Source: an uncultured Solirubrobacterales bacterium | GTDB lineage: Bacteria > Actinomycetota > Thermoleophilia > Solirubrobacterales > Solirubrobacteraceae | Assembly (NCBI GenBank): GCA_963773395.1 | Contig: CAVZAY010000001.1 | Coordinates: 6,491 to 70,490 of the forward strand | Reading direction: 5' to 3' | DNA length: 64,000 bases | In this document: piece after piece, positions 12,890-54,502 of the stretch | Layout: every line of letters begins with the position of its first letter | How positions within the stretch are numbered: the first letter of the stretch is position 1 | Notes under the pieces: generated by a model | Told to the model about the DNA's origin: nothing | The model's database searches: none | Seen by the model: only the letters and a program-made list of their open reading frames with translations | Position numbers and translations under genes: made by a program

Positions 12890-14412
12890 CTACTCCCACT
12901 CGATCGTGCCCGGCGGCTTGCTCGTGATGTCGAGAACAACACGGTTGACATCGTGCAGCTCGCCCATCATGCGCGAGGCGATCTGCTCGAGCAGGTCGTA
13001 CGGGAGGCGGGCCCAGTCGGCGGTCATCGCGTCGTCGGAGGTGACGGCGCGGATCACGATCACGTTGCCGTAGGTGCGCTCGTCGCCCTGCACGCCGACC
13101 GAGCGGATGTCGGGCAGGACGCAGAAAGACTGCCAAAGCTCGCGGTAGAGACCCGCCTTGCGGATCTCGTCCTGGAGGATGTGATCGGCGTCGCGCAACA
13201 GATCGAGGCGCTCCTTGGTCGCCTCGCCGCCGACGATCCGGATCGCGAGGCCGGGACCCGGGAAAGGCTGGCGCCAGACCAGTCGCTCGGGCAGGCCGAG
13301 CTCGGCGCCGACTGCCCGCACCTCGTCCTTGAACAGCGTTCGCAGCGGCTCGACGAGCTCGAAAGCAAGATCGTCGGGTAGGCCGCCGACGTTGTGGTGG
13401 GACTTGATCGTCGCCGCGCCCGCGCGCCCGCCGGACTCGATGACGTCGGAGTAGAGCGTGCCCTGAACGAGATAGCGCGCGTCCGAGAGCTTCGACGCCT
13501 CCTCCTCGAAGACGCGGATGAACTCGGCGCCGATCAGCTTGCGCTTGGTCTCCGGGTCGGTCACGCCGCGCAGGCGTTCGAGGAAGCGCTGCTCGGCGTC
13601 GACGGCAACGAGGGGGACCTTGAACGTGTCGCGGAAGGCCGCGATCACCTGCTCCCCCTCCCCCTTGCGCATCAGACCGTGGTCGACGAAGACGCAGGTC
13701 AGCTGGTCGCCGACGGCGCGATGCACGAGCAGGGCTGCGACCGAGGAGTCGACGCCCCCCGAGAGGCCGCAGATCACTTGCCCGCTTCCGACCTGCGCGC
13801 GAATCCGCGCGATCTGCTCATCGATGATCGACGCCGGCGTCCAGTTGCGCTCGCAGCCGCAGATGTCCTCGAGGAAGCGCGTGAGGATCTGCTGGCCATA
13901 GGGGGTGTGGACGACCTCGGGATGGAACTGGATGCCGTAGATCGCGCGCGCCTCGTGCTCAAAGGCGGCGACCGGCGAGACGCCCGAGGAGGCGAGCTCG
14001 GTGAAGCCCTCGGGGCGCGCTTGACCGTGTCGCGGTGCGACATCCAGCAGGTCTGCTCGGTGGGCAAGCCGGCAAAAAGGCGACCGGGCGCGCGCAGGTG
14101 CAGCTCGGCGCGGCCGAACTCGCCGACCTCGGCGCGCTCGACGAGGCCGCCGAGCGAGTGCGCGAGAAGCTGCATGCCGTAGCAGATGCCGAGCACGGGG
14201 ATGCCGAGCTCGAGCAGGCCGAGATCGAGTGCGGGCGCACCGGGTGCGTAGACCGACGCCGGCCCGCCTGACAGGATCAGGCCCGCCGGCGCGCGTCGCA
14301 CGATCTCCGCGACGCCGACATCGGCGGGCAACAGCTCCGAGAAGACGCCGCACTCGCGGACGCGGCGCGCGATCAGCTGCGAGTACTGGCCGCCGAAGTC
14401 AACGACCAGCAC
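12890..14412 (-). pseudogene. guaA: GMP synthase (glutamine-hydrolysing), one frame break
   Basis: The GATase half ([24 protein letters not shown]...GICYGMQLL...CWMSHRDTV) is in the frame of ORF 13774..14796. The synthetase half ([10 protein letters not shown]...[12 protein letters not shown]...PPGTIEWE) is in the frame of ORF 12890..14353. The junction KRAP/EGFTE needs one more G:C in the GGGG run 14012..14015. GTG start 14412. Confidence 0.9.
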
Positions 14413-14477
14413 CTCATGATGACCCCCCCGCCGTGGCGAGGCGCTTGCCGGCGTCTGCGCGTCGGCGAGCGCCTGGG

Positions 14478-15689
14478 TCAACCGCGCGCCTCGACCGTCT
14501 CGGGCAGCGGCGGTGCGGCGGCGCGTCCGAGCGAGGCCATGCCGACCCCCTGCTCGCGCTGCAGCTGCTTGCCCTCGGTCTGGAGAGCCGGCGCGACCAT
14601 CAGCTCGGCGCGCTGGAACTCGGCGATGTCCTCGTAGCCGCAGGTGGCCATCGAGGTGCGCAGCGCACCGAAGAGGTTGAGCGTGCCGTCGTTCTCGTTC
14701 GCCGGGCCGGTCAGGATCTCCTCGAGCGTCGCGTTCTGGGTCGTGCGGACGCGCGCGCCGCGCGGCAGCGTCGGGTGGAAGGTCGCCATGCCCCAATGGA
14801 AGCCGCGCCCCGGGGCCTCGTACGCTCGGGCGAGCGGGCTGCCGATCATCACGGCGTCCGCACCGCAGGCGATCGCCTTCGCGACGTCGCCGCCGTTACG
14901 CATGCCGCCGTCGGCGATCACCCTGACGAGCTCGCCCGTCTCGAGCATGTGCGTGGAGCGCGCGTCGGCGACATCCGCGATCGCGGTCGCCTGCGGCACG
15001 CCGATTCCGAGCACGCCACGCGTCGTGCAGGCGGCGCCCGGGCCGACGCCGACGAGCACCGCGTCCGCGCCCGTGCGCATCAGGTGCAGACCCGTGTGGT
15101 AGGAGGCGCAGCCACCGACGACGACCGGGATGTCGAGCGTCGGGATGAACTCCTTGAGGTTCAGCGGTGTCGTCGTCTTGGAGACGTGCTCGCCCGACAC
15201 GACCGTTCCCTGGATCACGAGGATGTCGAGACCCGCATCGAGCGCCGTCTCGTAGTAGCGCAGCACGCGCTGCGGTGTGAGCGACGCAGCGCAGACGACG
15301 CCTTCGGCCTTGATCTCGCGGATCCGCTCGGCGATCAGCTCCTCCTTGACGGGCTCGGCGTAGATCTGCTGCATCTTGCGCGTCGCGATCTCCTTGGGCA
15401 GCGAGGCGATCTCCTCGAGCTGCTCGTCCGCATCCTCGTAACGCGTGAAGATTCCCTCCAGGTTGAGCACCGCGAGGCCGCCGAGCTTGCCGAGGATTCC
15501 GGCGGTCTTGGGCGACACCACGCCGTCCATTGCGCTCGCGAGCAGCGGCAGCTCAAAGCGATAGTCGCCGAGCTTCCAAGTGATGTCGACATCGTCGGGA
15601 TCGCGCGTGCGCCGCGACGGCACGATCGCGATGTCATCGAACCCGTAAGCGCGCCGCGCCTTCTTACCGCGACCGATCTCTACTTCCAT
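14478..15689 (-). CDS. guaB3: GuaB3-family IMP dehydrogenase-related protein
   Basis: ORF 14478..15689, 403 aa: [34 protein letters not shown]...[25 protein letters not shown]...[26 protein letters not shown]. No CBS pair. Confidence 0.85.
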
Positions 15690-17980: not shown

Positions 17981-18885
17981 TCACCGGAGGCCCCAGGCGA
18001 GCTCGCGCAGCCGCTCGGCCTCGGCTCGCGCCGCCGCCGCCGGCTCGCGCCCGTCGCTCGCGTACGCCTCGACGATGGCCCGGGAGGCGCTGACGAGGCC
18101 CGCGGCCCGACCGGGTGCGAAGGCCGCCGCGAGATCCTCGACGCGGCCGCCCTGCGCGCCGATCCCCGGCAACAGGAACACGGCACTCGGCATCAGCTCG
18201 CGCGCCCGCGCCAGGTGCTCGGGCACGGTCGCGCCGATCACCGCGCCGACGTCGCTGAGCCCGCAAGCGCGCGGCACGCCGAGCTCGTCGACGAGACGCG
18301 CGACGCGCTCCCAGAAGGCGCCGCCCGCCGGCGAGCTCGACGTCCTGGAGCTCGGCGGCGCCCGGGTTGGAGGTCCGTACGAGCACGAACACGCCGGCTC
18401 CGGTCGCGATCAGCGGCTCGAGCGCGTCGCGGCCGAGCAGCGGGTTCGCCGTGAACGCGTCGGCCCCGAGCCCCGCGACCGGACCGAACGGCGCGGGCGT
18501 GCTGCCCGCGAGCGCCTGCGCGTACGCCGCGGCCGTGACCGGCACATCGCCACGCTTGCCGTCGGCGATCACGAGCAGCCCCGCCGCGCGCGCCGCCGCC
18601 ACGACCTCCCGTAGCGCGGCGATCCCGGGCGCGCCGAGGCGTTCGAAGCAGGCGAGCTGCGGCTTGACAGGCAACGCACGCCGGCCCGGCGGCAGCGATC
18701 ACCGCCCGGCAGTGCGCGAGCACCGCGCGCAGCGGCGCGCGCGCCTGCCGTCGCCAGCCGGCCGCCCGCGCGACCGGCCACAGCCGCTGCGGGTCCGGGT
18801 CAAGCCCGAGCACGATCTGGGACTCGCGCTGCGCAACGCGCGCCGCCAGCTCGTCTGCAAAAGCTCTCGTCGCCACGAACCGCAA
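17981..18885 (-). pseudogene. pyrF: orotidine-5'-phosphate decarboxylase (type 2), two frame breaks
   Basis: Three frames are needed. First: MRFVATRAFADELAARVAQRESQIVLGLDPDP...AAGPAC (ORF 18238..18885). Second: [20 protein letters not shown]...[10 protein letters not shown]...[21 protein letters not shown] (ORF 17958..18674). Third: [34 protein letters not shown]...[10 protein letters not shown] (ORF 17981..18277). Breaks are near 18675 and 18323, each read as one extra base. Confidence 0.85.
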
Positions 18886-19041: not shown

Positions 19042-19950
19042 CTACTCCCCCTGGCTGTCCGGCCTCACGCGGTCGGCGGGCTCGAGGTGGACGAGCACGT
19101 CGGCGCCGTCGAGGCGGCGCGCGATCTCGTCGCTGAGCACGTGTGCCGTGCCGTGCGCCGCCTCGAGCGTCGTGCCGGCGGCGAACTGCACGTGGAGGTC
19201 GACGTAGCGACGCGAGCCCGGCGGCGCGGCTGCGCAGCTCGTGGAAGCCGATGACCCCGCGCGCGGTCGCCGACCTCCCGGATCGCGGCACGGATCTCGG
19301 CGAGGTCCGATTCGGGCAGCGCCTCGTCGATCAGGACGCGAGAGGCGCGGCGCAGCAACCGCACGCCGGCGATCACGATTCCGGCGGCGACGATCAGCGC
19401 GACGAGCGGGTCGAGCCAGTAGGCGTGCGTCACGGCGATCAGGATGAGGCCCGACGAGGACGGCGAGCGAGGAGTACGGCGTCGGCGCTCAGGTGCATCG
19501 CATCGCCCTCGAGCGCGGGCGATCCGGTTGCGCGAGCGCGGCGAGCGATGATCCGCGAAACGATGAGGTTGACCACCGCGGAGGCGGCGACGACGGCGAT
19601 GCCGATGCCGAGCGTGTGGACGTGCGAGCCACGCACGAGCCGGGCGATCGCCTCGTAGGTGATGATCCCGGCGCCGAGCAGGATCAGCGCGCCCTCCGTG
19701 GCCGCCGCGAGGTTCTCGAGCTTGTAGTGACCGTAGCGATGCTCGGCGTCCGCGGGCTCACCGGACTTGCGCACCGAGACGTAGCGCGACGATCGACGCG
19801 AGCAGATCGATCGAGCTGTGGACGCCCTCGGTGAGGACCGCGACCGAGCCCGTGGCGACGCCCGCAACGAGCTTCGCGCGCGATCAGCGCGCTGTTCGAC
19901 GCCACTGAGAGCGCTGCGGCGCGACCCTTCACGGCCTCCTCGCTATCCAT
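19042..19950 (-). pseudogene. cation diffusion facilitator (CDF) metal efflux transporter, six frame breaks
   Basis: Repaired reading: MDSEEAVKGRAAALSVASNSALIA / KLVAGVATGSVAVLTEGVHSSIDLLASIVA / YVSVRKSGEPADAEHRYGHYKLENLAAATEG...MHLSADAV / SSLAVLVG / LILIAVTHAYWLDPLVAL...IREVGDRA / GVIGFHELRSRAAG / SRRYVDLHVQFAAGTTLEAAHGTAHVLSDEIARRL...DSQGE. Breaks are near 19875, 19784, 19474, 19449, 19259 and 19216. Confidence 0.85.
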
Positions 19951-20527
19951 CAGCGCTCCGCCGTGAACCACTCCTCGAACGCGCGCAGCGCTCGCCCACG
20001 ATGGCTGATCGCGTCCTTCTCAGCGCCGCTCAGCTCGGCCATCGTCCGGCCGCTGGCGTCGTCGACCGGCACGAACACGGGGTCGTAGCCGAAGCCGCGC
20101 GCTGCCACGGCGCGACGCTGCCATGACACCGTCGCAGCGACGCTCGAAGACGCGCTCCTCGCCGCGTTCGGGGTCGACATAGACGAGCGCGCAGACATAG
20201 TGCAAGCCGCTCCCCGGCGGCACCTCGTTCGATCAGCAGCGCCAAGTTCTCCTCGTCGCTCGCCTCCTCGCCCGCGTAGCGCGCGGAGCGGACGCCCGGA
20301 CGCCCGCCGAGCGCGTCCGCCGCGATCCCCGAGTCGTCGGCGATCGCGGCGCGGCCGGTCTGCGCCGCCGCCGCCCGCGCCTTGTCGAGCGCGTTCTCGA
20401 CGAACGTCTCCCCCGTCTCGGGCGGCAACTCGACCGTTTCCGGCAGCGGCTCGAGCTCGATGACCGACAGCAGGCGGCGGAACTCGCGCAGCTTGTGCTC
20501 GTTGCGCGTCGCGAGGATCAGCGGCAT
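19950..20527 (-). pseudogene. rdgB: non-canonical purine NTP pyrophosphatase RdgB, two frame breaks
   Basis: Three frames are needed. First: [20 protein letters not shown]...[25 protein letters not shown] (ORF 20030..20527). Second: [32 protein letters not shown] (ORF 20020..20223). Third: [37 protein letters not shown] (ORF 19950..20600). Breaks are near 20227 and 20100. Confidence 0.85.
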
Positions 20528-21280
20528 CGGGTCGCGGCTGAGCTATCCGCTCGCACGGGCGCTGAGATTGCGGCGTCCTGGAGGACGCGCAGCTGCGCAA
20601 TCGCGCCGCGCCGCCAGCGCGAGCAGCTCGTCGAGCGAGGCGCGCGTCAGCGGCGTACGCTCGGCCGTCGCCTGGACCTCGACGAGGCCGCCGTCACCGG
20701 TCATCACGACGTTCGCGTCAACCTCGGCGCGGGAGTCCTCGCGAGTAATCGAGGTCGAGCAGGCTGGCGCCGTCGACAACACCGCACGACACCGCCGCGA
20801 CCGCCCCGTCAGCGGGTAGCGCGCCAGCTCGCCCGCGCCGACGAGCCGCGACGTGGCCCGGGCGAAGGCGACGTAAGCGCCCGTGATCGAGGCGCAGCGC
20901 GTGCCGCCGTCGGCCTGGAGGACATCGCAGTCGAGGTAGACCGTCCGCTCCCCGAGCGCCTCGAAATCGACGACGGCGCGCACGGAGCGCCCGATCAGCC
21001 GCTGGATCTCGACCGTCCGCCCGTCGAGGCGCCCGCGCGTCGCGTCGCGCGCCTTGCGCTCGCCGGTCGAGGCCGGCAGCATCCCGTACTCGGCAGTCAG
21101 CCAGCCGCGCCCGCTGCCGGCAAGCCAGCGCGGCACGCCCGGCTCGACCGACGCCGTGCAGATCACCTTCGTCTCGCCGATGCTGATCAGCGCCGAGCCC
21201 GTCGCGGGCTCGACGAAGTCGACCTCGAACGCGACCGGGCGCAGGCCGTCAGCCGCGCGTGAGTAGCTGCGCTCGCTCAC
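20518..21280 (-). pseudogene. rph: ribonuclease PH, three frame breaks
   Basis: GTG 21280 overlaps the murI TGA. VSERSYSRAADGLRPVAFEVDF...TAEYGMLPASTGERKARDATRGRLDGRTVEIQRLIGRS...DCDVLQADGGTRCASITGAYVA reads in the frame of ORF 20543..22198. AVAAVSCGVVDGASLLDLDYS needs a missing G in the run 20803..20806 and an extra base near 20741. The C-terminal [13 protein letters not shown] needs a break near 20611. The repaired stop at 20518 overlaps the rdgB start. Confidence 0.8.
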
Positions 21281-22129
21281 GCCGCCACAGCCGAGCGCAG
21301 CTCGACATGCTCGATCTGCTCGATCGGCAGCTGGAGGAAGCGCGAGCCCACGGCGCGGAAAGCCTCGACGTCGCCGGTGCACAGGAAGCGGTAGTCGCCC
21401 TCGCCGCTGGCCTGGCTCGACAGGCCGGCGAGCTCGAGCGAGGCCGCAACCGACAGCGCCAGCGCACGGCCCGAGCTGACCAGGTTGACGCCCGGGCCGA
21501 GCATTCGCTGGAGCATCGGAGCGACCAGCGGGTAATGGGTGCAGCCGAGGATCACCGTGTCGACGCCGGCCTCGCGCAGCGGCGCGCAGTAGCCACGCAC
21601 GGCGTCGAGCGACGCGGTGGTCGACCGGGAACCCCTCCTGGATCATCGGCGCGAGACCAGGGCAGGCGACGCTCGTCAGCGTCGCGTCGGGCGCGTCGGC
21701 GTGCAGTGCGCGGTCGTAGGCGCCGCTCGCGACCGTCGCGGTCGTCGCGAGCAGGCCGATCCGCCGGTTGGCGCTGCGCGCCGCGGCGATCCGCGACTCC
21801 GGCTCGATCACGCCGATCACATCGACGCCGAGCGTCGTCGAGAGCATCCGCTCGCGCAGCGACGGCAGCGCGGCCGAGCTGAGCGCGTTGCAGGCGACGA
21901 CCAGCAGCTTTGCGCGACGCGCGAGCAGGTGCTCGGCGATCTCGAGCGCGAATCGCTCCAGATCGGCGGCGCTGTGCTCGCCGTAGGGGAAACGCGCGGT
22001 GTCCCCGAGATAGAGGAAGTCCTCATGCGGCAGCTCGACGAGCAGCTCCTGGAGCACCGTGAGGCCGCCGACGCCCGAGTCGAAGACCGCGATCGGGCGC
22101 TCACGCGGTGGGGGCGCTGGTGAGCTCAC
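21277..22129 (-). pseudogene. murI: glutamate racemase, one frame break
   Basis: The N-terminal two thirds (RPIAVFDSGVGGLTVLQEL...LLVVACNALSSAAL...GLLATTATVASGAY) are in the frame of ORF 20543..22198. The C-terminus (VRGYCAPLREAGVDTVILGCTHYPLV...) is in ORF 21277..21600. The break is near 21619. GTG 22129 preferred as start (track ORF starts at 22198). Confidence 0.85.
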
Positions 22130-22172
22130 CGTTCGTGATGATTCCAGATGCACCGCCGGATATGGTGGCTTC

Positions 22173-24359: not shown

Positions 24360-24379
24360 CGAGGTACGGTACAGCCCGC

Positions 24380-25987: not shown

Positions 25988-26424
25988 ATGTATCAATTCA
26001 GCCGGGGGATGTTCAGGGAGCTCGCTCCGATGGTCGAACAACGCAACGGCGGGCGCCACTACATGGACGACCAGCTCTACGTTCTGCACGCCTGCGAGGG
26101 AGCGGTGCGGCGCCTCGCGACCGACCGCCACTATTTCGCGCGCCCGGCGCGGACGCTTTTCGCCGACGTGCGCAGCTACTTCCCGGTCGCGCGCCAGCAG
26201 CAGGTCTACGCCGTCATTGAGCGCTACATCGCGCTCGCGGACGAGTTCCTTGCGTCGCTGCCGCCGGCCGGCTGCGATGCGGAGGGGAACCCGCTGCAGT
26301 GTCGCGCGCTGACGCGCAAGGGCACGGCGTGCCAGCGCGTCCGCTCGCGCACAACGGTTACTGCCCGTCGCACCAGCACCTGGCCGAGACCGAGCACGCA
26401 GCACCTGCCGCTCTGGCGGCGTAG
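25988..26424 (+). pseudogene. hypothetical protein with C-terminal Cys3-His knuckle, one probable frame break
   Basis: MYQFSRGMFRELAPMVEQRNGG... in ORF 25946..26512. One missing base near 26337 switches to a frame reading CRALTRKGTACQR/RPLAHNGYCPSHQHLAETEHAAPAALAA and stopping at 26424. The uncorrected frame gives an Arg-rich tail that runs into the next gene. Confidence 0.5.
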
Positions 26425-26469
26425 GACCCCGCGGCAACCCCGACTCGACGCGGAGGTAGGCTGCCGGGG

Positions 26470-40565: not shown

Positions 40566-40985
40566 TCAATTGTGGCTGCCGAGCCGGTCCCACATGTAGA
40601 GGCCGACGCACTCCTCGGCGAGCTCAGCCGCGCGTGAACGTGAGAGCCTCGGCAGGACATCGGCGAGCGCATGCTCCTCGGCTCGACCCGAATCGAACGC
40701 CTCCTCGCTCGAGAGTCCCGCGGCGACCTTGAGCGCCTCGCGGCGGTACTCCCCGAGCGAGGGGTAGATCGAAAGCAGAAACGCCGTGTTTGCGATCGGC
40801 TGGCCGACGGTCTCGAGCGTGGCGTGCCAGGCAGCGAGCATCGAGAGGTCGTCGGCGTCGAGCTCGGCGACGGCCTGCGCGTAGTGGGCCGGGAGGTCGC
40901 GCTCGGGGATCTCGTCAACCCAGGCGTGAAAGACCTCGCCGACGAGCTGCCGGCGCGCTTCACGGCCCACAGACTCGGCGATCAC
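40566..40985 (-). CDS. hypothetical protein
   Basis: ORF 40566..41075. GTG 40985 (VIAESVGREARRQLVGEVFHAWVDE...) preferred because the upstream 30 aa are Arg/Ser-rich. Helical, no family recognised. Confidence 0.5.
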   Translation of the reverse strand: MIAESVGREARRQLVGEVFHAWVDEIPERDLPAHYAQAVAELDADDLSMLAAWHATLETVGQPIANTAFLLSIYPSLGEYRREALKVAAGLSSEEAFDSGRAEEHALADVLPRLSRSRAAELAEECVGLYMWDRLGSHN

Positions 40986-41081
40986 GTGTGATCGCGTCGT
41001 GCGGATCGATGAAGCAGAGCGACATTCCGGGAGGCACCGTGCCCTGCGAAGCCTAGGGTCCGCGGAGGACGGCACGCCCCG

Positions 41082-42248: not shown

Positions 42249-43696
42249 TTACGAAACGCGCGCAGCGAGGTGGCGCTCGACCGCCTCGCGCGCACTCGCG
42301 GCCCTCGTTGATCGCCCAGACGATCAACGACTGGCCGCGGCGCGCGTCACCGCACACGAAGACCCCATCACGTGAGGTCGCGTACGCGGGCGCCGCAACG
42401 TTGCCGAGCGGGTCAAGCTCGAGGGCGAGGCTCTCGGCGATCTGACGTTCGGGGTACAGGAAGCCCATCGCGAGCAGCACGAGGTCGGCCTCGATCTCGC
42501 GCTCGGTTCCCGGCACCGGCGCGAACGGCGGGTCGGGCGCGGCCTGCGCAATGTGCATCGCCCGGACGGCGCCGTTGCCGGCAAAGCGCGTCGTTACGAC
42601 CGAGAAGTCGAGCTCGCCGTGACGCGTCTCGCGCGCCTCCTTCATCGCATAGGAGATGCGCAGCTTGAGCGGCCAGCGTGGCCACGGCGTCAGCTCGTCG
42701 GGCCGATGCTCCGGCGGCTCGGGAACGATCTCGAGCTGCGTGATCCACTCGGCGCCCTCGCGCAGCGCGTTGCCGACGCAGTCGGCGCCCGTGTCGCCGC
42801 CGCCGATCACGACGACCTTCCTGCCCGCTGCGCTGATCCCGGCGGCCGGCGGCGGATCGAGCTGCGGCCGCGGGCCGAACTCGGCCGCGACCGCCCGGTT
42901 GCGCTCGTAGAGGTAGTCCATCGCGAAGTGGATGCCGTCGAGCTCGCGGCCCGGCACGTCGAGGTCGCGCGGAACGCGCGATCCGATCGCAAGGACGAGC
43001 GCGTCGAACTCGTCGAGGAGCTCTGCAGGATCGACATCGCTACCGACGTCGACGCCGAGGCGCAGCTCGACGCCTTCGGCGAGGAGCTGGTCGACACGGC
43101 GCTCGACGAGCTGCTTCTCGATCTTGAAGTCGGGTACGCCGAAGCGGATCAGCCCGCCCGGCGCCTCGTCGCGCTCGAAGACGACGACGGCGTGGCCCGC
43201 GCGCCGGAGCTGCTGCGCCGCCGCAAGGCCGGCAGGCCCCGAGCCGACGATCGCCACGCGACGCCCGGTCTCCTGCGTCGGCGGCTGCGGCACGACCCAT
43301 CCCTCATCGTAGGCACGGTCGACGATCGCCTGCTCGATCTGCTTGATCGTCACAGCTTCGCCCTCGCGAATCTCGAGCACACACGCGGCCTCGCACGGCG
43401 CTGGGCAGAGACGGCCGGTGAACTCCGGGAAGTTGTTCGTCTCGTGCAAGGAGCCGATCGCCATCTGCCAGAGATCGCGGTAGACGAGGTGATTCCAATC
43501 GGGAATCAGGTTCCCGAGCGGGCAGCCGCCATGGCAGAACGGGACGCCGCAATCCATGCAGCGCGCGCCCTGCTCGCGTAGCTCCTCATCGGGCCGCGTG
43601 ACGAGAAACTCGTGGAAGTCGTGGATGCGCTCGGCGGGCGCGCGCTCAGCCGGCCGACCGGCGGTCGTACCGCAAGAAGCCACGCAGCTCGCCCAT
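42249..43696 (-). pseudogene. gltD: glutamate synthase small subunit, two frame breaks
   Basis: ATG 43696 (MGELRGFLRYDRR) is in a different frame from the body of ORF 41992..43743 (RPAERAPAERIHDFHEF...CMDCGVPFCHGGCPLGNLIP...VAIVGSGPAGLAAA...[26 protein letters not shown]). The C-terminus [11 protein letters not shown], with stop at 42249, needs a further shift. Breaks are near 43657 and 42285. Confidence 0.88.
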
Positions 43697-43739: not shown

Positions 43740-46700
43740 TCATTCAGACACACGCCGGTAGTCGTTCGGCATTACCTTGGCGAATCGCGGCAGCGTCGCG
43801 TCCCAATCGTCAAGCACGCGGCGTGCGACGCTCGAGCCGGTGCGCAGGCAATGCTGCTCGATCAGCTCGCGCAGCTCGGCTTCGTCCTCGCAGTCGATCT
43901 CCTCGATGCTCACGATCGCGCCGTTGAGGCGCCGTGAGGCGAAGTCGCCGATCTCGTCGAGCACGTAGGCGACGCCGCCGCTCATGCCCGCCGCGAAGTT
44001 GCGTCCCGTCGGCCCGAGCACGACGACGCGCCCACCGGTCATGTACTCGCAGCCGTGGTCGCCGATGCCCTCGACGACAGCGCGCGCGCCGGAGTTGCGC
44101 ACGGCGAAGCGCTCACCCGCGATGCCGCGGAAGAATGCGTAGCCGCCGGTCGCGCCGTAGAGCACGGTGTTGCCGATGATCACGTTCTCCTCGGCGACGT
44201 ATGCGGCGCCGGCGGGCGGGCGCACGACGAGCGTGCCGCCGGAAAGACCCTTGCCCGTGTAATCGTTCGCGTCGCCCGCAAGGGTGAACGTGACGCCCTT
44301 CGCGAGCCAGCCGCCGAAGCTCTGGCCCGCGGAGCCGAGGAAGTTGACCTCGATTGAGTCCTCGTCGAGCCCATCCGAGCCGTAGCGGCGCGCGATCTCG
44401 CTCGAGAGCAGGCCGCCGACGCAGCGGTTGACGTTGCGCACCGGGCGCGTCAGCTCGATGTGCCCGCCCTTCTCGATCACCTCGCGCGCATCGTCGATCA
44501 GCGTCCAGTCGAGCGCATCGTCGAGGACCGGCTCCTGCGCGCAGACGCGCCGCAGCGGCGTGCCCGCCGGCAGCTCGGGCATCGTCAACAGCGGCGTTAG
44601 GTCGATGCCGCTCGCCTTCCAGTGGTCGATTGCACGCGCCGGCTCGAGCAGGTCGGTGCGCCCGATCAGCTCGTCCATGCGTGCGCAGGCCGAGGCTCGC
44701 GAGGATCCCGCGGACCTCCTCGGCGACGAAGTGGAAGAAGTTGATGACGTGCTCGGGCGTGCCGGCGAAGCGCTTGCGCAGCACCGGGTCCTGCGTGGCG
44801 ACGCCGACCGGGCACGTGTTGAGATGGCAGGCGCGCATCATGATGCAGCCAGTCGCGATCAGCGGGGCGGTGCCGAAGCCCATCTCGTCCGCGCCGAGGA
44901 TCGCCGCGATCGCGACATCGCGCCCCGTCTTCAGCTGGCCGTCGGTCTGGACGTAGATGCGCGAGCGCAGGTCGTTGAGCAGCAGCGTCTGCTGCGTCTC
45001 GGCGAGGCCGATCTCCCACGGCAAGCCGCTCGAGAAGATCGAGGAGAGCGGAGACGCGCCGGTGCCGCCGTCGTGGCCGGAGATCAGCACGTGGTCGGAG
45101 TTCGCCTTCGCGACGCCCGCGGCGACCGTGCCGACGCCGACCTCCGAGACGAGCTTGACCGAGATGCGCGCACGCGGGTTCGCGCAGCGCAGGTCGTAGA
45201 TCAGCTGCTTGAGATCCTCGATCGAGTAGATGTCGTGGTGGGGCGGCGGCGAGATCAAGCCGACGCCCGGCGTCGAGTGACGGATCATCCCGATGTACTC
45301 GTCGACCTTCGTGCCTGGCAGCTGGCCGCCTTCGCCGGGCTTCGCGCCCTGGGCCATCTTGATCTGGAGCTCGTCGGCGTTGACGAGATACTCGATCGTG
45401 ACGCCGAAGCGCCCTGAGGCGACCTGCTTGATCGCCGAGCGGCGGTTGTCACGGAAGCGCTCCGGGTCCTCTCCGCCCTCGCCCGTGTTCGAGCGCCCGC
45501 CGAGCTCGTTCATCGCGACCGCGAGCGTCTCGTGCACCTCGCGCGAGAGCGAGCCGAGGCTCATCGCGCCGGTCGAGAAGCGCTTGACGATCGCCTGCCA
45601 CGGCTCGACCTGCTCGAGCGGGATCGGGGCGCCGATCGGGCGGAAGTCGAGCAGGCCGCGCAGCGCGGCGCGGCGCGTCGCATCCTCGTTCGCAGACGCC
45701 GCGAACTCCGCATAGGAAGCGGCGGAGTCATAGCGCACGGCATGCTGGAGCAGGCCGATCGTGTCCGGATTCCACATGTGGCGCTCGCCGTCGCGCCGCC
45801 AGGCGTAGCGGCCGCCCGCCGGCAGGCGCGCGGGCCGCAGCTCCGGGCTCGGGTAGGCGCGAGCGTGGCGTGCGAGAGCCTCCGTGGCGAGGACGTCGAG
45901 GCCGACGCCACCGATCCGCGAGGCGGTGCCGGTGAAGTAGCGGTCGATCACCGAGCGGTGAAGGCCGACGGCTTCGAAGATCTGGGCGCCGCAGTAGGAC
46001 TGCACGGTCGAGATTCCCATCTTCGAGATCGTCTTGAGCAGGCTCTTGCCGATCGACTTGCGCACGAGCTCCTGGCCGCGCGTGCAGTCGAGCACCTCGC
46101 CGTCAGGGCCGCGCAGCCAGCCCTCCTCGATCAGCTCGCAGACCGTCTCGAACATGATGTAAGGGTTGATCGACGCTCGCGCCGTAGCCGATCAGCGTCG
46201 CGAAGTGGTGGATCTCGCGGGGCTCGCCGGACTCGAGCACGAGGCCCGCGCGCAGGCGGGTCCCGTCGCGCACGAGGTGGTGGTGGACCGCCGGCGACGG
46301 CGAGCAGACACGGGATCGGCACGCGGTCGGGGCTCGTCGCCCGGTCCGAGAGGATGAGGATGTTCGAGCCCGCGTCGATCGCCGTCCTGCGCCTGCCCGC
46401 AACAGCGCGCGAGCGCGGCCTCCATCCCGTCGGGACCCTCGGCCACCGGCCACGTGATGTCGATCGTGTGCGCGCTGAAGACATCGTGCGAGACGTTGCG
46501 CAGCGTCTCCAGCTCGTGGTTTCGCAGGATCGGGTGCTCGAGCGTCATCTGGTGCGCGTGCTCGGGCGTCTCCTCGAGCAGGTTGCGCTCGGCGCCGAGT
46601 CCGGCCGCGATCGACATCACGATGCTCTCGCGGATCGGGTCGATCGGCGGGTTCGTGACCTGTGCGAACAGCTGCTTGAAGTAGGCGAACAGCGCCGGCG

Positions 46701-48216
46701 CGCCGTCGGAGAGGACCGCCAGCGTGGTGTCGTTGCCCATCGAGCCGACCGGCTCCTCGCCCTCGATGATCATGCTCGGCAGCACCTTCGCGATGTCCTC
46801 GCGGCTGTAGCCGAAGGCGAGCTGGAGCGAGCGCAGCGGCTCGCGTCAGCGCGCGCGCCTTGCGCTGCGGCAGATCCTCGAAGCGGATCGTGTTCTCGTC
46901 GTACCAGCGCCCGTAGGGCTTCTGCGTCGCAACCTTGCGCTTGATCTCCGGGTCGGGAACGATGCGCCCCTGCTCGAGGTCGATGAGGAAGAGCTTGCCG
47001 GGCGCGAGCCGGCCCAGCTGCTCGACGTCCTCCGGCGGCACGGGGAGGATCCCGGCTTCCGAGCCGAGCACGACGAGCCCGTCCTTGCGCACGACGAAGC
47101 GCCCGGGGCGCAGGCCGTTGCGGTCGAGCGTCGGCGCCGATCACGCGACCGTCGGTGAACGCAACCGCAGCAGGACCGTCCCACGGCTCCATCAGGCAGG
47201 AGTGGTAGGCGTAGAAGCCCCCGAGCTCCGGCGGGAGCTCGCCGTCGCGGTTCATGTAGGCCTCGGGGATCATCATCATCAGGGCGTGCGGCAACGAGCG
47301 TCCGGCGAGCGTCAGCAGCTCGAGGACGTTGTCGAAGTTCGCCGAGTCAGAGCCCCCCGGACGCACGACCGGCAGGACCTTCGGGAGGTCCTCGCCGAAG
47401 AGCTCGGAGCGGAGCGTCGACTCGCGCGCGCGCATCCAGTTGACGTTGCCACGCAGCGTGTTGATCTCGCCGTTGTGGGCGATCATCCGATACGGGTGCG
47501 CGAGCTCCCAGCTCGGGAAGGTGTTCGTCGAGAAGCGCGAGTGGACGAGCGCCATCGCCGAGGCGAACCGCTCATCGGCGAGATCGCGCGTAGAAGCCCT
47601 TCAGCTGGTGGCTGATCAGCATGCCCTTGTAGACGACCGTGCGCGCGGACAGGCTTGCGACGTATAGGCCGGGGGCCGCGGCCGACTCGACGACGCGGCG
47701 GATCACGTAGAGCTTGCGCTCGAACGCATCCTCGTCGGCGCGGTGGGCCGGTCCGGCGCCGATGAAGACCTGGCGGATCGTCGGGCGCGATGCGCGGGCG
47801 GTAACACCGATGTTCGTGTCGTCAACGGGCACGTCGCGCCAGCCGAGGACCTCCTGGCCCTCCGCGAGAACCGTCCGCTCGATCAGCGCCGCAAGCTGCG
47901 CATGCTCGTCCGCCTCATCGGGCATGAAGCACATCCCGACGCCATAGCTTCCGCGTGGGGGCAGCTCGAAGTCGACGACGGCGCGTAGGAACGCATCGGG
48001 GATCTGGACGAGGATGCCGGCGCCGTCGCCGGTCTTCTTGTCAGCGCCAGCGGCGCCGCGATGCTCCAGGTGCTCGAGCGCCTCGAGCGCGAGCACTACG
48101 ACCTCGTGATCAGGCTCGTTGCTCAGCCGAGCGACGACGCCGATGCCGCAAGCGTCGTGCTCGTAGCGCGGGTCGTAGAGGCCGACGGCCCCCGGTTGCT
48201 GGGTGGTCTTGGTCAT
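43740..48216 (-). pseudogene. gltB: glutamate synthase large subunit, seven frame breaks
   Basis: The gene is assembled from ORFs 47572..48216 (MTKTTQQPGAVGLYDPRYEHDACGIGVVA...), 46770..47555, 46103..47092, 46192..46785, 46131..46484, 44113..46155 and 43740..44678. The repaired protein is 1489 aa with no stop. Breaks are at about 47589, 47132, 46843, 46383, 46289, 46171 and 44679, each read as one extra base. Confidence 0.9.
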
Positions 48217-48350
48217 CTATCAGTCCCGACATTCGCCGGCCCCACGGGGGGCAAACGGGCACTTGAGGCGGGCGCAAATCCTACCAGCGAGGGATCGTCC
48301 AGTCGGCCTACCGCCGCGCTCGGACAGCCGGCGGCTGCGCCGAAAAACCC

Positions 48351-51300
48351 TCAGACGCCGAGCGTGACCGCCTCCTCGTAGGAGCACAGCCGCGCGCGAC
48401 CGGGACAGGTCCCGCACCGCTCACGCCCGGGGGCTGCGGTGACGGGGAAAGCAGCGGCTTGCAGCGGGGCGATTCGTGCGGCGAGCTCGTCCTCGAGCTC
48501 GCGCCGGTCGGCTGCGGCGAAGCGCACGCTGACGAGGCGGTCCGGGAGGTGCAGGAAGCAGTGCGCGACCTCCACGCGCTCGGCGCCCGCGTCCAGGCTG
48601 GCCAGCGCGTACACGAGCCGCTGGAGCGAGTAGGCGCGGTCGACGTGGGCATCGAGGTCCGCTCCCGGATCGACCGCATCGGTCTTGTAGTCGACGATCA
48701 GCACGGTGCCGTCCGGCTCGGTGGCGATCGCGTCGAACGTCCCGCGCAGCAGCTCGCCGCCAACCTCCTCGAGGAACGCGAACGGCTCCTCGCGGCGCAC
48801 GGCGTGCGCGGCCGCGAGGCGCGCACACAACGGACTACGCGCGAACGCTCCGGCGAGCCGGGCAGCGTCGCCACCGGCGTCCGCGACGCCGACGCGGGCA
48901 GCCGTCGCAGCAACCGTCGCCGCGTCGGGTTCGCGTGGGTCGGCGAAGTCGAACACTTCGAGCAGAGCGTGCACGAGGATCCCGCGCGCCGTAGCACCCC
49001 CGTGGTCGATACCCGGCGGCGGCGAAACGTCGGGCAGGCCGACGATGCGCTGCAGGTAATAGCGGTACGCGCACCGCTCGTACTCGGCAAGCGCCGTGTA
49101 GGAGAGACGCGGTGGTGGGATGCGCGAGGCGCGCGAAACCGCCTTAGTCGCGATCGCCGGGCGCGCGGGGGCGGAGAGCTGCGGCGTCTGCGATGTGAGC
49201 GCGGAGGCCGTCGCGAGCGTGAGGCGAACGCCATCGACGAGCTCGCCCTCGCATTCGCCGATCACAGCGCGGGCGGCGACATCAGCGACGAGACCCGGTC
49301 CAAGCCAGCCGATCGGGCACAGCGTCGACGCCGGCCAGGAAGCGAAGCGCGCCGCCCCGCTGAGGATCAGGCGCTCGCGGGCGCGCGTCATCGCGACATA
49401 GAAGATCCGTTGTTCTTCGGCGCTGGCCACGGCGCGCTGCTCCGCAGCCAGCTCCGGGTAGGCGAGCGCCTCGACGCTCGCGCGCTCGATCGTCGGCAGC
49501 CGGATTCCGACGCGTGCTCCGTCGGTCAAAAGGCGCGGCAGCTCGGTGTTCGGCCGATGGCCGAGGTCGGCGAGGCAGACGACGGGGAACTCGAGGCCTT
49601 TTGCGGCGTGCACCGTCATCAACCGAATCGCGCCGCCGAGCGGCGGCGGCGCCTCGGACTCGTGCAGGCTGCCCAGGCGCCGGGCCGCGAGCGCATCGGC
49701 GAAGCGCCGCAGGTCGCGCCCGTGACGGCGCTCGAACTCGCGCGCGAGGCGCACAAGCTTGCGCGCGTTCGCGACTCGCCGCTCCGCCGCCGTCAGCTGG
49801 CAGAGGTAGCGCTCGTAGCCGCCTGCGTCGAGAACCTGCGCGACCAGATCGCCGAGCCCGAGGTAGCGCGCGGCGGCGCCGCAGCTGCGCGAATCGCTGC
49901 GCGAAGTCGCGCAGCTGCGGGATCGGATGCGAGCGCCTCCCAGGGCGTGATCTCCTGCTCGCGTGCGCGGCGCGCGAGCTCGACCAGCGCGTCCGAATCG
50001 GCGCCACCGAGCGGCGATGCGAGGGCACCGTAGAGAGCGAGCTCGTCGAGCGGGTTCGCGAGGGCGGCGATGAATGCGGTCAGGTCGACGATCTCCGGTC
50101 GCTCGTAGAAGCCGGCGCCCGCGCGGGGTCAGCGTCGCGTGCCCGCGCGCCGCCAGCTCGTTCTCGTAGATGCGGATATCGGTCGCGGACCGAAGCAGGA
50201 CCGCGATGTCCGCGGGCACGGCAGAGCCTGTCTCGATCAGCTCGCTCAGGCGAGCCGCAAGCAGTCGCGCCTCGGCCGTGCGCGCAAGAGCCGGCCTGGG
50301 TGCGCAGTGGGTGCCGAGCAGCTCGGCATGCTCTTGCCAGCCCTCCGTATCGACCACGAGGAGCTCGATCGGCGGGCCGCCGGGCGCGTCCGCGCGTCCG
50401 GGGCAGCAGGGGCACGAACTCCTCGCCGAAGCACGGGGCGAAGACGCGGTTGACGGCTTCGAGGATCGCAGCGCGCGAGCGGTAGTTGGCCGAGAGGACG
50501 CCGCGCACGGCCGCGTTGCGCGAGCGTAGCTTGGCGCTCGCGAAAGCTCTCGACGGACGCGTGCCGGAACGCATAGATCGACTGGAACGCGTCGCCGACC
50601 GTGAAGAGGTTGTCCCGGTCGAGCGCGGCGGAGGATCCCCATCTGGCGCGGGTTCGTGTCCTGGAGCTCATCGACCATCAGCAGATCGAAGCGCTCCCGC
50701 GTTGCCGCGGCGATCTCCGGATGCTCGCGTAGCAGCTTTGCCGCCGCGAGCTCCAGGTCGTCGAAGTCGGCACCGCCGCGGGTTTGCTTGAGCAGGCTGA
50801 AGCGCCGCGTGAACTCCGCCAGCAGCTCGTCGAGGAGGGGAATCGCAGCCGCCGCGAGGTCATCCGCGAGCGCCTTGGCGAGGGCCTCGCGTGCTGCGTC
50901 GTAGGCGTCGGCCTCCGCGCAGTCGAACGCATTGCCGCGGCGCGTCAGCTTGAGCTCAGCGACCGCGAGCGGGCTGGCGCAGCCCGAACGCAGGACCTCG
51001 TCGCAGCGCTCGAGGCGGTCCAGTGCAGCCCGCACGGTGGCGGTCATCGCCGCCTGCGAGAGCGCATGCTGGAGCGCTGTACAGGCGCTCGCCAGGCGCG
51101 CGCACGCAGCGGCGAGGTGCGCTCGGCGGCGGCGGATCGGGGAGCCGCGGCGCATCCTCGCCGCGGCTGCGACGCTCGTCGAAGACTGCGAGCAGCGCGC
51201 GCCGCAGCTCGTCAACGCCGAAGGTGGCAGCGAGGTCGAGCGCCTGCGGTCGTTGCTGCCAGACTTGCGAGCGCCTGCCGGAAGGCTTGCTCGCGCAGGC

Positions 51301-51717
51301 CGGCGGCCTCGGCGTCGTCGAGCACGACGAACTCCGGCGGGACGCCCGCAAGCAACGGGTGGGCGCGCAGGAGTCGCAGCGCAGAAGCGCATGGAAGGTC
51401 GAGATCGGCGCTGCGGCAGTCTCGTGCGCGGCCGCGCGCTGGCCGGCGTCGAGCAGTGCCTGGCGCACGCGGCTGCGCAGCTCCCCCGCGGCGCGATCGG
51501 TGAATGTGATCGCAAGGATCCTGCCCGGTCGGACGCCGTCCTCGCAGACGGCACGCACGAAGCGCTCGACGAGCACGCTCGTCTTGCCGCTGCCCGCGTT
51601 CGCAGCCAGCGCGAGCGAGCCCTGCCGGTCGCCGATCGCGGCGAGCTGCTCGTCGCTCAGCACGCGCGTCGCCGCGCCGTCAAGGTCGAAGAGCCTCGGT
51701 TGCCCGATCGCGCTCAC
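48351..51717 (-). pseudogene. addA: AddA/AdnB-like UvrD-family helicase-RecB-type nuclease subunit, about ten frame breaks
   Basis: GTG 51717 overlaps the upstream TGA. Helicase part: LSDEQLAAIGDRQGSLALAANAGSGKTSVLVERF...ILAITFTDRAAGEL...ISTFHAFCA...LLMVDELQDTNPRQ...FTVGDAFQSIYAFRHA...SANYRSR...VHAAKGLEFPVV...FYVAMTRARERLILSG. Nuclease part: LSYTALAEYERCAYRYY...GTFDAIATEPDGTVLIVDYKTD...QRLVYALA...CGTCPGRARLC. Breaks are near 51387, 51374, 51241, 51123, 50630, 50510, 50400, 50120, 49921 and 49878. The last 1.5 kb is unbroken. Confidence 0.8.
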
Positions 51718-54502
51718 GCCGCACCGACCCGGCAGATCGCAGGGTAGCTGCAGCCGTCGCGACCGCAGCTTGCGGGGCGCGGCGCGAGCTCACCCCGATC
51801 GATCTCGGCCGCGATCGTCACCGCGCAGGCGAGCCGCTCCTCGAGAACGGCGCGCACCGCGGGAGCCTCGAGCTTGTCAGGTGCGCGAGGGGTTCCGCCT
51901 CGGGGACGTCGTCGCGGATCAGGCCCCGCGCACGGAGCTCGGCGCGCAACGGCTGGTAGAGGCCGCCGACCGCTTCGACCCCGAGCAGACGCTCGACAGC
52001 GAGCATGTAGAGCGCTGCCTGGAGCCGGTGGTCACCGGGCCAGGATCCCGCGCCGGCGACCGAGCTGCCGCTCTTGTAGTCGAGGACGATCGCGGTGCCG
52101 GCGCGAGCGTCAACGTCGACCCGGTCGATGCGCCCGCACAGCGCCAGGTCCGGGTCGCAGCTCGACCGCCTCGTGCGGCGCATCATCGACACCGAATGCG
52201 AGCTCGAGAGCCGCCGGCACGTGCTCGCCCGCCAGCGCAGCGGCGTAATCGAGGTAACGGGCGAGCTCCGCGCGCAGGCGCCGGCGCTCGGCGCGGTCCA
52301 TCGCGTCATCTGGCGAGAGCTCTCGAACCCGGTCGTCGATCGCCGTGTCCAGGAGCTCGAGCGCGCGCGGCAGGTCTTCCGCGCCCAGACGCCGCTCCTT
52401 CGAGGCCCGCGAAGACCGTCGCCAGCACGCGGTGAGCCTCGTTGCCGCGCGTGAGCCAGATCGAATCCGGCGAGAGCTCACTGGGACGCAGGCCGTGCTC
52501 GACGAGCCAGGCAACAGGACAGCGCGCCCATCGCTCGAGGCCCGATGCCGAGTGTGCGCGGCGCGCGCGAAGCGTGCCAGGCGCTGCGGATCCGCGAGCG
52601 GTGTCAGCGCGCCGGCGCGCCGGCGCGGCGCGCCCAGCAGGACGCTTCGCTCGTCGCCTGGCCAGCCGAGCGCGCCCGCCGGGCGCGTGCGCCGTTCGTC
52701 GAAGAGGGCCGGCGCAAAGCAGTCGCACAGCTCGTCGACAAACAGCGAGCGCGGCGTGAGGTCCCCCGCATCGTTTGCCTCGTGCCAGCTGACATACAGC
52801 CGGGCGGTCGGCCGCGAACAGAGCGCGTAGAAGAGGTAGCGCTCGGCGGCGAGCTGGTCGGTCGCTTCGCCGAAGGGCAGGCCGATCTGCGCGCGCTCGA
52901 CGGCGCCAAGGAAATTCTCCTCCCGCTGCCACGCAGGGAAGACGCCTTCCTGCGCGCCGTAGACGAACAGCGCGCGGACACGGCGCGCGCGCAGCGATAG
53001 CGGGTCGCAGATTGCGACGCCGGCGTCGCCATGGGGCAGCTGTACGGTCACCGCATCGAGCGCGGCGGCAACGCCGGCGAGCCCGCCGACTGCCCGAGGG
53101 TCGCTGCGCTCGAGCTCGCGCAGCTCGGCTAGCACGCGCCTCGCTGCCGCTGCCGCCGCGCCCTCCCATGGATCGAGCAGGGCCGCGCTTCGCTCTGCTC
53201 CGGCCGCGAGCAGGCGATCCAGCTCGGCCTCGACGGCGTCGATGCTGTCGGGCAGCCGGAGCGCTCCATGTCGCGCTCCCACATCGCGCGCGCTGACGCA
53301 GGTCGGTTATGCCGCGGCGGCGCAGCTGCGCCTCGAATGCGTCCTTCGTGCGCGCGAGATGACCGTGGCTGGCCGCGCAGATGACAAGGTCGTCGGCCTC
53401 GCCCTCGCTCGAGCGACGCGCAGGCAGGCGAGCAGCGTGCGACCCGTGACGCTCGCAGCCAGCCGATCGCGGCGGTCGAGCGAGTAGGGGACCGCTGCGG
53501 CGTCGAGCGCGTCGGCGAGGAGGTCTGCCGCCGGGAGTGCGCACAACGATCGCGATGTCCGCCGGCTCGTAGCCTGATGCAACGAGACCGGCCACCGCTT
53601 CGGCGACCAGCTCGGCCTCGGCGCGCTCGTCGCCGCCCTCCAGCAGGCGCACGGCATCGCCGGGCAGAGCCGGACGCGCGTCCTCGAACAGCGCGCGCTC
53701 GAGATGGTGGAGCGTCTGGTCCTCGTAGTAGTCGGAGCTCGGTGGGAGCTCGATCGTCTCCGCAGCAAGCGGCCGGAGCGCCTCGAGCGTGGCGGCGCGA
53801 CCGGCGAGCGCCCTGCGCCCGGCCTCCCCGGGGAGGGATAGCGTGACCGGCGCATCGACGCGACTTGCGAGCGTCTCGATCACCGCCAGCTGGAGTGGGT
53901 CGAGATCGTCGAAGCCGTAACAGAAGACGGCCGTGGCGCGCCAGCGCTCGGGAGCGAGCGTGATCGCGTCCAGGGCGGCACGCTCATGCAGCTCTCGGTC
54001 GAGCCGGCCGAGTCGCTCGAGGCGCGCACGATATGCCGAGTTGAGCGCGATGAGCTCGTCAGCGTACGGACGGCGGCCACCGCTCCCCGCCCAGGTGCGC
54101 ATCGCCGCTGCGAAGCGCGCCGGCTCGATCCGGCGTGCAGCGAGCTCGCCAAGGAAGCGCCCTAGGGTTGGGGCAAAGGCGGGTGACCGTGCTGCCGGGG
54201 CGAGGGCACGAAGGCGCGTCTGCGCGACAGCGGAGCGCGCGAGCGCGAGGCGCGCGTGCTCGCCGAGCGGGCGGTCGACGCAGGCCGGCGCGGCTTGCGA
54301 TCTCGCGGATCAGGCCGCTGAACGCTTCGACACGCGCGCCGACAGTCGCGCCGGTCTGGGCGAGCTCGCGGCGGTAGTGCTCGGCGTCGACAGAGCGTGG
54401 GACGACGAGGATCGGCTCGCGCGCCAACGCCGCGCGGTAGCGCTCGAGGACCACATGTGCTTTCGCGGCGTTCGCCGGGCCCGTGACGAGGGTGAGGGGC
54501 AT
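51714..54502 (-). pseudogene. addB: AddB/AdnA-like nuclease subunit with degenerate Walker A, about nine frame breaks
   Basis: N-terminal part: MPLTLVTGPANAAKAHVVLERYRAALAREPILVVPRS... Middle part: ...AVFCYGFDDLDPLQLAVIETLA...GYEPADIAIVVRTP...VAICDPLSLRARRVRALFVYGAQEGVFP...ERYLFYALCSRPTARLYVSW. Nuclease part: ...SASGLERWARCPVAWLVEHGL...LCGRIDRVDVDARAGTAIVLDYKSG...LQAALYMLAV...SCGRDGCSYPAIC. Breaks are near 54279, 53530, 53418, 53405, 53285, 52560, 52400, 52165 and 51870. Confidence 0.75.

Follow-up and report, generated by a model that had tools for sequence, protein, structure and literature searches.

The 64,000-nucleotide (nt) stretch of DNA analysed here, which we call the window (positions 6,491 to 70,490 of contig CAVZAY010000001.1, assembly GCA_963773395.1, from an uncultured Solirubrobacterales bacterium; guanine-plus-cytosine [GC] content, 70%), contains seventeen conserved genes that can be read only by hopping between reading frames. 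Are these genes dying in the organism, are they decoded in some unusual way, or does the deposited sequence misrepresent them? Our analysis indicates that the frame breaks are almost certainly assembly or consensus errors and not gene decay. With regard to their source, we consider it very probable that reads from related populations were collapsed onto one contig, so that both alleles of a single-nucleotide polymorphism (SNP), and sometimes neither allele, were written into the consensus.

The proteins encoded by the window assign it to the Solirubrobacterales; three of them, GuaB3, SufS, and TopB, have residue-for-residue matches in the protein collection, each on a single, unannotated 565,409-bp contig of NCBI and ENA, whereas an exact match to CysO was not found. 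Between 12.9 and 54.5 kb, a hidden Markov model on codon usage with six coding frames, which we used for frame segmentation, returned many short pieces lying on the same strand and in differing frames, whose joined translations are recognizable proteins. A purpose-written frameshift-aware protein-to-DNA aligner was then run with the open reading frames (ORFs) of 160 related loci (L-numbers below denote the related loci and contigs used for comparison), and base-level alignment to contigs of about 94% identity pinned each indel to a base. The latter contigs, L161–163 and L167–175, were found via near-identical proteins and constitute what we refer to as the sister population (~94% DNA identity); they stem from several independent metagenome assemblies (JGI, ENA) and one NCBI metagenome-assembled genome (MAG), and shorter contigs at 95–97% identity were also recovered by way of near-identical proteins. 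By these two alignments, the window carries 60 frame-breaking single-base indels in 17 genes, 50 of them extra and 10 of them missing bases. The original prediction, made from the letters of the window, had proposed about 57 breaks, with about 50 extra and 7 missing bases; its 17 genes and its number of extra bases hold, the count now stands at 60 with 10 missing bases, and several of its break coordinates were off by a few bases. The names that it gave to the genes agree with the Pfam families of the intact orthologues for 16 genes. Frameshift-aware alignment, which it had put forward as a check, gives identical break positions for all spanning orthologues (64/64 at 30237, 64/64 at 47586, 51/51 at 47132, and 21/21 at 26964). 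The lengths of the window genes differ from those of the intact orthologues by the net indel count, as in the CDF transporter gene, for which six breaks had been proposed in 909 nt (909 = 903 + 6); the exceptions are rph and sufD, in which a few bases of 3′-end length difference come on top of the net indel count. After repair, the broken genes contain no in-frame stop in 7,551 codons, which is in line with what had been proposed.

The neighbors of these genes are undamaged, as the original prediction had stated for the interleaved genes and for both flanks. Relative to their relatives, no indels were found in guaB3, pfkB, the S11 carboxypeptidase, GT4, the Zn-ribbon gene, HDAC, DUF1802, mec, or cysM, nor in cysO, Rrf2, sufS, sufU, ltaE, topB, the CvpA-protease, or PBP, and for the interleaved genes, including cysM, DUF1802, mec, GT4, and topB, no break was detected with up to 60 or more orthologues. 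Between 54.6 and 60.1 kb, indels relative to the sister population occur only between genes or at gene ends. Several candidate breaks were rejected. The frame switches of the left flank at 1843, 5834, and 10877 are the boundaries of ordinary adjacent genes (rplM/rpsI, two sugar-metabolism genes, and sigma/anti-sigma, respectively); the signals at 22133/22161, 24372–24401, and 48193–48376 reflect stop-to-stop ORFs of relatives that run into upstream noncoding sequence; and the extra bases at 26454 and 26466 are lacking from the 94% relative alone and precede the start of the HIBADH-like gene.

In independent assemblies, the same genes are whole. The sister-population contigs cover 16 of the 17 genes, and each of these is one uninterrupted ORF that differs from the window by exactly the single bases listed below. 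A still closer relative is L176 (ENA ERZ25039473, contig_84768, a Flye-style name), which encodes the exact HDAC protein of the window and is 99.4–100% identical to it over 23.0–29.5 kb and 17.5–18.5 kb. Within 23.0–29.5 kb, L176 has intact nadB, Cys3His, and HIBADH-like genes, and all seven indels of the window are absent from this clean zone, so that no lesion is shared with the closest relative there. In its other stretches, L176 has about 180 insertions of its own, which break GT4, the S11 peptidase, pfkB, guaB3, and cysM, genes that the window has intact. It is a mosaic, in which stretches of about 0.5% mismatch to the window alternate with stretches of 5–14% mismatch, and its insertions lie in the latter. 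When one species is represented by two assemblies whose broken essential genes differ, they cannot both be reporting biology.

Selection leads to the same conclusion. When window bases were placed in the reading frame of the sister population and codons were then compared, the ratio of nonsynonymous to synonymous polymorphism (pN/pS) was 0.121 for the broken genes and 0.115 for the interleaved intact genes (Mann-Whitney p = 0.92). Because these values are alike and stops are lacking, purifying selection has been equal on both gene sets across ~6% divergence, also downstream of every break; relaxed selection in the broken genes, in the form of nonsense codons or a raised ratio of nonsynonymous to synonymous substitution rates (dN/dS), was not seen. 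The tally of indels against nonsense and missense changes that had been suggested along with the original prediction thus comes to 60 indels and 0 nonsense codons, at a pN/pS like that of intact genes. The intact orthologues in independent assemblies, the unchanged selection, the lack of nonsense codons, and the breaking of other genes in an assembly of the same species all uphold the earlier view that the damage is consensus error and not natural decay.

What kind of error this is can be read from the inserted bases themselves. Our tests of the insertion signature cover 45 base-exact insertions, made up of 19 G, 19 C, 5 T, and 2 A. In 32 of the 45, the inserted base represents an alternative, synonymous allele of its neighbor, nearly always at the third codon position. 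Such synonymous doublets were far fewer when insertions were placed in random slots (12.3 ± 2.9, with a maximum of 23, in 2,000 trials) or in slots with both flanking bases matched (19.8 ± 3.1, with a maximum of 30, in 5,000 trials). All 7 A/T insertions fit doublets: TGC/TGT, AGC/AGT, and TTC/TTT, which are two-fold codons where only the pyrimidine is synonymous; ACC/ACT, GGC/GGT, and CTG/CTA; and CGG/AGG, a first-position Arg pair. Insertions adjoin a third codon position in ~81% of cases versus 67% by chance, a weak test by itself. Since only 8 of the 45 equal a neighboring base and so extend a homopolymer, against 25.9 ± 3.2 expected, the insertions are neither homopolymer-length errors nor slippage mutations; a homopolymer-length pattern does fit a few deletions (14016 and 26338). 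The GGG^C context that had been proposed for the insertions turned out not to be a general rule.

At 10 sites (18728, 18750, 19784, 20609, 24862, 25511, 25559, 27105, 27231, and 33301), both bases of the doublet were found separately, one in the sister population and the other in L176 or L167. At 24862, for example, the window reads G-C, L176 reads C, and the sister population reads G; at all three sites of nadB, the doublet combines the L176 allele with that of the sister population, and in pyrF, 18728 and 18750 likewise have one doublet base each in the sister population and in L176. Because the doublet bases occur singly in two relatives, the consensus holds both alleles of a real SNP in tandem. 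An alignment artefact was considered as the source of these two-relative doublets and rejected, as a random insertion would need both to land beside a site that differs from the relative and to match that relative's allele, which we estimate for only ~4% of events.

We therefore favor a scenario in which the sampled metagenome would have held two or more closely related populations, whose reads would all have been collapsed onto one contig. The consensus would keep both alleles in succession at some polymorphic sites, yielding one extra base, and neither allele at a few, yielding one missing base. Breaks would arise only where the co-assembled populations differ or are co-recruited, which would produce the patchiness, and they would be commoner in the most GC-rich stretches. 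Since real polymorphism in conserved genes consists mainly of synonymous G/C changes at third positions, the inserted base would usually be synonymous and would rarely lengthen a homopolymer. Strain mixture had entered the original prediction only as an item to be excluded; far from being excluded, it is now favored, since the tandem-allele signature points to a strain-mixture consensus. The contig itself is probably a long-read contig, with platform and polisher inferred. Regarding the second population, we lean toward the 94% sister species rather than a conspecific strain; in the clean zone of L176, all five doublets have the sister-species allele as their second base. A more far-reaching version of this scenario, which we regard as possible but rather doubtful, is that each doublet is a true SNP between two co-occurring Solirubrobacterales lineages and that the alternation of hit and clean stretches is a recombination mosaic of identical and diverged tracts. 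The strain-level mismatch between the window and L176 is 0–2.8% per 500 nt, and the window's indels lie mostly, not solely, in the stretches that are more variable relative to L176, the numbers being small.

Several points weigh against the collapse of related populations as the source of the breaks. The presence of two read populations at the break sites is deduced from the sequence. Thirteen of the 45 insertions and most of the 10 deletions (e.g., 21609, 47589, and 14016) fall outside the synonymous-doublet pattern; these may be ordinary random, run-length, or homopolymer errors. At 21609, 30238, 31181, and 35898, the same base is lacking from all available relatives, so that the second allele was seen nowhere. 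Divergence from the sister population stands uniformly at 5–6% whether or not a patch is broken, leaving no detectable substitution-level trace of mixing, and our literature search did not find a published account of a tandem-allele artefact of Flye/Medaka.

The same class of error occurs in other assemblies. For a set of 17 genes spanning GT4 to ltaE, the rate of frame breaks per 1,000 aligned codons is 2.65 in the window, against 0.27 in 45 Nanopore-only MAG loci and 0.02 in 35 short-read MAG or isolate loci (together, the 80 loci around cysM). The Nanopore-only loci belong to Microflora Danica MAGs, which were built with metaFlye and one Medaka round without short reads (PMC12313526); 14 of the 45 carry breaks, which number 27 (21 insertions) and concentrate in individual genes, with five in L020 nadB and four shared by Rrf2 and sufC in L079, whereas the 35 loci from short-read MAGs or isolates have a single event (Fisher p = 4e-5). 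nadB, whose GC content is the highest among the genes here, is broken in four independent long-contig assemblies, namely, the window, L020, L037, and L173. The artefact is more pronounced in L176: when its insertions are read in the frames of genes that the window has intact, 38 of 64 are synonymous doublets versus 26.9 ± 3.7 expected, and 7 of 64 extend homopolymers, figures that are slightly conservative or noisy owing to a mis-set sufS frame (6 of the 64 events). L173, a 307-kb sister-population contig (JGI 3300056587), is identical to L172 over 20.5 kb save for a 1-kb patch in nadB (L173:2500-3550), which holds all 99 mismatches, many of them spaced at multiples of three bases, and all 30 gap openings, of which nearly all are extra bases; nadB of L173 is called as fragments on the wrong strand.

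The broken genes of the window, with the breaks assigned to each (aa, amino acids; extra and missing refer to single bases), are as follows.

12890 to 14481, minus strand: guaA (GMP synthase), 1 break, missing base 14016, beside the G run 14012–14015, a gap relative to L161; orthologue intact at 530 aa.
17981 to 18885, minus strand: pyrF (OMP decarboxylase), 5 extra, at 18330, 18667, 18728, 18750, and 18753; orthologue intact at 299 aa.
19042 to 19950, minus strand: CDF cation-efflux transporter, 6 extra, at 19217, 19268, 19448, 19478, 19784, and 19878; orthologue intact at 300 aa (909 nt versus 903 nt).
19950 to 20527, minus strand: rdgB (Ham1-like NTP pyrophosphatase), 2 extra, at 20099 and 20227; orthologue intact at 191 aa.
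20550 to 21280, minus strand: rph (RNase PH), 3 breaks, extra at 20609 and 20742 and missing at 20808; orthologue intact at 244 aa.
21277 to 22057, minus strand: murI (glutamate racemase), 1 extra, at 21609, with 4/4 orthologues; intact orthologues of 259–306 aa.
24380 to 25837, plus strand: nadB (L-aspartate oxidase), 3 extra, at 24862, 25511, and 25559; intact at 484 aa in the sister population and intact in L176.
25988 to 26424, plus strand: Cys3His-type small protein, 1 missing, at 26338–26340; intact at 145 aa in L172 and L176.
26470 to 27391, plus strand: HIBADH-like dehydrogenase, 3 breaks, missing at 26963 and extra at 27105 and 27231, with 21–22 of 22 orthologues; intact at 306 aa in L172 and L176.
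30009 to 31192, minus strand: moeZ-like E1 (ThiF plus rhodanese), 2 extra, at 30238 and 31181 (codon 4), with 64/64 and 10/10 orthologues; intact at 393 aa.
31847 to 32601, plus strand: sufC, 1 missing, at 32112, with 8/8 orthologues; orthologue intact at 251 aa.
32594 to 33947, plus strand: sufD, 3 extra, at 32716, 33301, and 33313; intact in L167 and L172 (450 aa).
35641 to 37027, plus strand: sufB, 1 extra, at 35898, a base not present in L164, L165, L167, or L172–L175; orthologue intact at 461 aa.
42255 to 43696, minus strand: gltD, 2 extra, near 42285 and near 43651, good to a few bases, from orthologue alignment only.
43743 to 48216, minus strand: gltB, 7 extra, at 44680, 46171, 46289, 46388, 46846, 47132, and 47589, with 30–64 orthologues unanimous; intact at 1,502 aa.
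48351 to 51717, minus strand: addA-like helicase-nuclease, 10 extra, at 49878, 49917, 50123, 50404, 50504, 50631, 51126, 51263, 51383, and 51387; orthologue intact at 1,117 aa.
51714 to 54502, minus strand: addB-like nuclease, 9 breaks, extra at 52158, 52394, 53536, and 54279 and missing at 51884, 52576, 53270, 53296, and 53413; orthologue intact at 929 aa.
40566 to 41025, minus strand: hypothetical protein of 152 aa, with an extra base at 40989 (about codon 12) relative to L172 and to 2/2 orthologues.

The last of these, which the original prediction had not listed, is possibly an 18th affected gene, or else its extra base may be a natural difference between species or in the N terminus. gltD lies in a gap between sister-population contigs (42.1–44.6 kb), and its breaks were placed solely by protein alignment to more distant orthologues; the break near 43651 was seen in all ten orthologues listed and that near 42285 in the five that reach this point. 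The addA-like gene has, in addition to the insertions given above, a cluster with a net gain of three bases at 50289 and 50308–50309. In this cluster, as in that of pyrF at 18728–18753, three extra bases lie within about 25 nt, and the frame is regained after a short garbled stretch; such triple-insertion clusters would slip past checks by ORF length alone. Beside broken genes, intergenic extra bases relative to the sister population were observed at 48334, 48350, 25844, and 25949, which may represent either natural indels or the same artefact in noncoding sequence.

If the collapse of related populations is not the source, the explanation that survives best is that these are ordinary random long-read consensus errors in patches that polishing missed, for example, where short reads were lost at extreme GC. 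This is the mechanism first proposed, a long-read draft polished with short reads where GC allowed, and we judge it unlikely. It draws support from the run-length errors at 14016, 26338, and 27231, from the approximately 13 insertions that bear no allele signature, from the breaking of the GC-richest gene, nadB, in the window as well as in L020, L037, and L173, and from the rise of event density with GC and the higher local GC at events. The damage is indeed patchy, as had been claimed: in 1-kb bins, the variance-to-mean ratio is 2.05, and event-free gaps of up to 6.4 kb lie beside stretches with 5–6 events per kb. Event density is 2–3 per kb above 72% GC and 0.3–0.5 per kb below it (0.9 in the seven bins under 66%), with a Spearman rho of 0.32 between GC and event density (p = 2e-4), and local GC is 0.730 at events versus 0.706 at random positions. 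Yet no events occur at 22–24 kb or at 57–58 kb, where the DNA is equally GC-rich (bins of 0.72–0.73). Because such clean GC-rich stretches exist, GC alone fails to set the patches; it modulates the error but does not define where the patches lie, and the comparison of GC between broken and intact stretches that had been suggested thus yields a higher density above 72% GC without a clean separation. Errors left by incomplete polishing would furthermore not explain why 32 of 45 insertions are synonymous alleles, why homopolymers are avoided, or why alleles are matched in two relatives. Finally, the comparable MAG set shows the same pattern and was never polished with short reads, which, together with the synonymous nature of the inserted bases, speaks against the mechanism first proposed.

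A local misassembly, in which segments of the window strain and of the 94%-identical sister species were spliced into a chimera, is in our estimation very unlikely. Mosaics do exist nearby, as illustrated by L176 with its alternating mismatch levels and by the 1-kb foreign-looking patch of L173, and collinearity with the sister population is lost from 12845 leftward and again across 60126–63663. However, divergence from the sister population is flat across the window, at ~4–9% per kb whether a patch is broken or intact, and splicing would yield substitutions rather than single-base insertions.

Genuine pseudogenization, wherein the organism carries the frameshifts and its genes are decaying or dead, is less plausible again. 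Apart from the facts that the bases stand in the deposited sequence and that the damage is limited to particular genes, nothing speaks for it. It would require that murI, guaA, pyrF, nadB, sufBCD, and gltBD be disabled together in a free-living soil actinobacterium, by 60 indels that brought no nonsense codon into 7,551 codons and left pN/pS at the level of intact neighbors, even though a contig of 99.4–100% identity has nadB and the HIBADH-like gene intact and other genes broken. The indels moreover avoid homopolymers, the opposite of what slippage mutation produces, and there is no mutational rationale for the insertion of a synonymous allele. Ribosomal +1/−1 frameshifting or transcriptional slippage that restores the frame would account for hopped frames that read through conserved motifs without stops, but it can be dismissed as next to impossible, given that no orthologue among the 160 related loci and the sister population is shifted at any site, that the contexts are heterogeneous, with no common slippery motif, no A/T run, and 37 of 45 insertions outside homopolymers, and that the sites differ between assemblies of the same species. 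Real pseudogenization and programmed recoding are thus effectively excluded, and it is at most barely conceivable that the frameshifts are real in the DNA and either tolerated or decoded.

The window has further features of note outside the broken genes. Its left flank contains glmM, rpsI, rplM, and a transposase fragment at 3209–3728. In rpsI (ribosomal protein S9; 1121-1843), the conserved domain is preceded by an N-terminal extension, ~110 residues long, that is acidic and contains much proline and alanine. Synteny with the sister population stops at 12845, to the left of guaA, where L161–L163 continue with an ABC transporter, a sigma factor, and an M28 peptidase. On the other side, the 3.5 kb at window positions 60126-63663 are not present in the sister-population contigs L168–L171, where the base corresponding to 60125 adjoins that corresponding to 63664 directly; this segment looks like a strain-specific insertion. 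It includes, at 60304–62023 on the plus strand, a gene with a twin-arginine-like signal and sulfatase-like sequence and, at 62457–63564 on the minus strand, a transposase-like gene. At 56905, the window and the sister population differ by two bases at the point where the end of the CvpA-protease gene overlaps the annotated start of topB; since the true topB start (MTEPTK...) likely lies downstream, no gene appears to be broken there.

Taken at face value, the contig would contribute 17 false pseudogenes in central pathways, namely, peptidoglycan synthesis (murI), purine and pyrimidine synthesis (guaA and pyrF), NAD synthesis (nadB), Fe-S assembly (sufBCD), glutamate synthase (gltBD), and recombinational repair (addAB), and these would skew completeness estimates, metabolic reconstruction, and the inference of gene loss for the lineage. 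The pattern is present in about a third of the relatives' Nanopore-only MAG loci that we examined. Extra bases that avoid homopolymers and match the synonymous alternative of their neighbor mark strain-mixture consensus errors from sequence alone, which is useful for quality control, and the remedy for such errors is haplotype-aware re-polishing, not more coverage or short-read polishing. If the doublets are indeed the imprint of SNPs, the frameshift noise in strain-collapsed long-read MAGs could be mined, without reads, for microdiversity and recombination tracts.

How does this locus compare with known systems? Many conserved genes are frameshifted during the accumulation of pseudogenes in reductive evolution, as in Mycobacterium leprae and insect endosymbionts, and real decay of this kind brings with it nonsense mutations, raised dN/dS, deletions, homopolymer slippage, and lesions common to close relatives. 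The window resembles these genomes in its frameshifted conserved genes and shows none of the other marks of decay. In programmed frameshifting or slippage, as in prfB and dnaX, the sites are conserved in orthologues and have a slippery motif. The single-base hop is alike, but the sites of the window recur in no orthologue and have no common motif.

The window stands closer to long-read assemblies and MAGs, in which indel frameshifts likewise take the form of single-base indels that truncate conserved genes and are lacking from short-read assemblies. Such indels are reported to be the chief quality problem of Nanopore consensus sequences (PMC9262707; proovframe preprint) and have been put down to homopolymers and low coverage, fading above ~40-fold (PMC9262707). 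Whereas the published Nanopore indels are homopolymer-length errors, 37 of 45 insertions in the window lie outside homopolymers, insertions outnumber deletions 5:1, and the inserted bases are typically synonymous alleles. The literature on strain collapse describes mixed or averaged SNP alleles and lower identity, and one-base insertions that set two alleles in tandem are a feature of the window not described there. Flye is reported to collapse related strains into consensus contigs, for example, Escherichia coli K-12 and W at 98.65% identity (PMC8302730). It is these strain-oblivious consensus contigs, as produced by metaFlye, that the window behaves like, and L176 and L173 do so more strongly.

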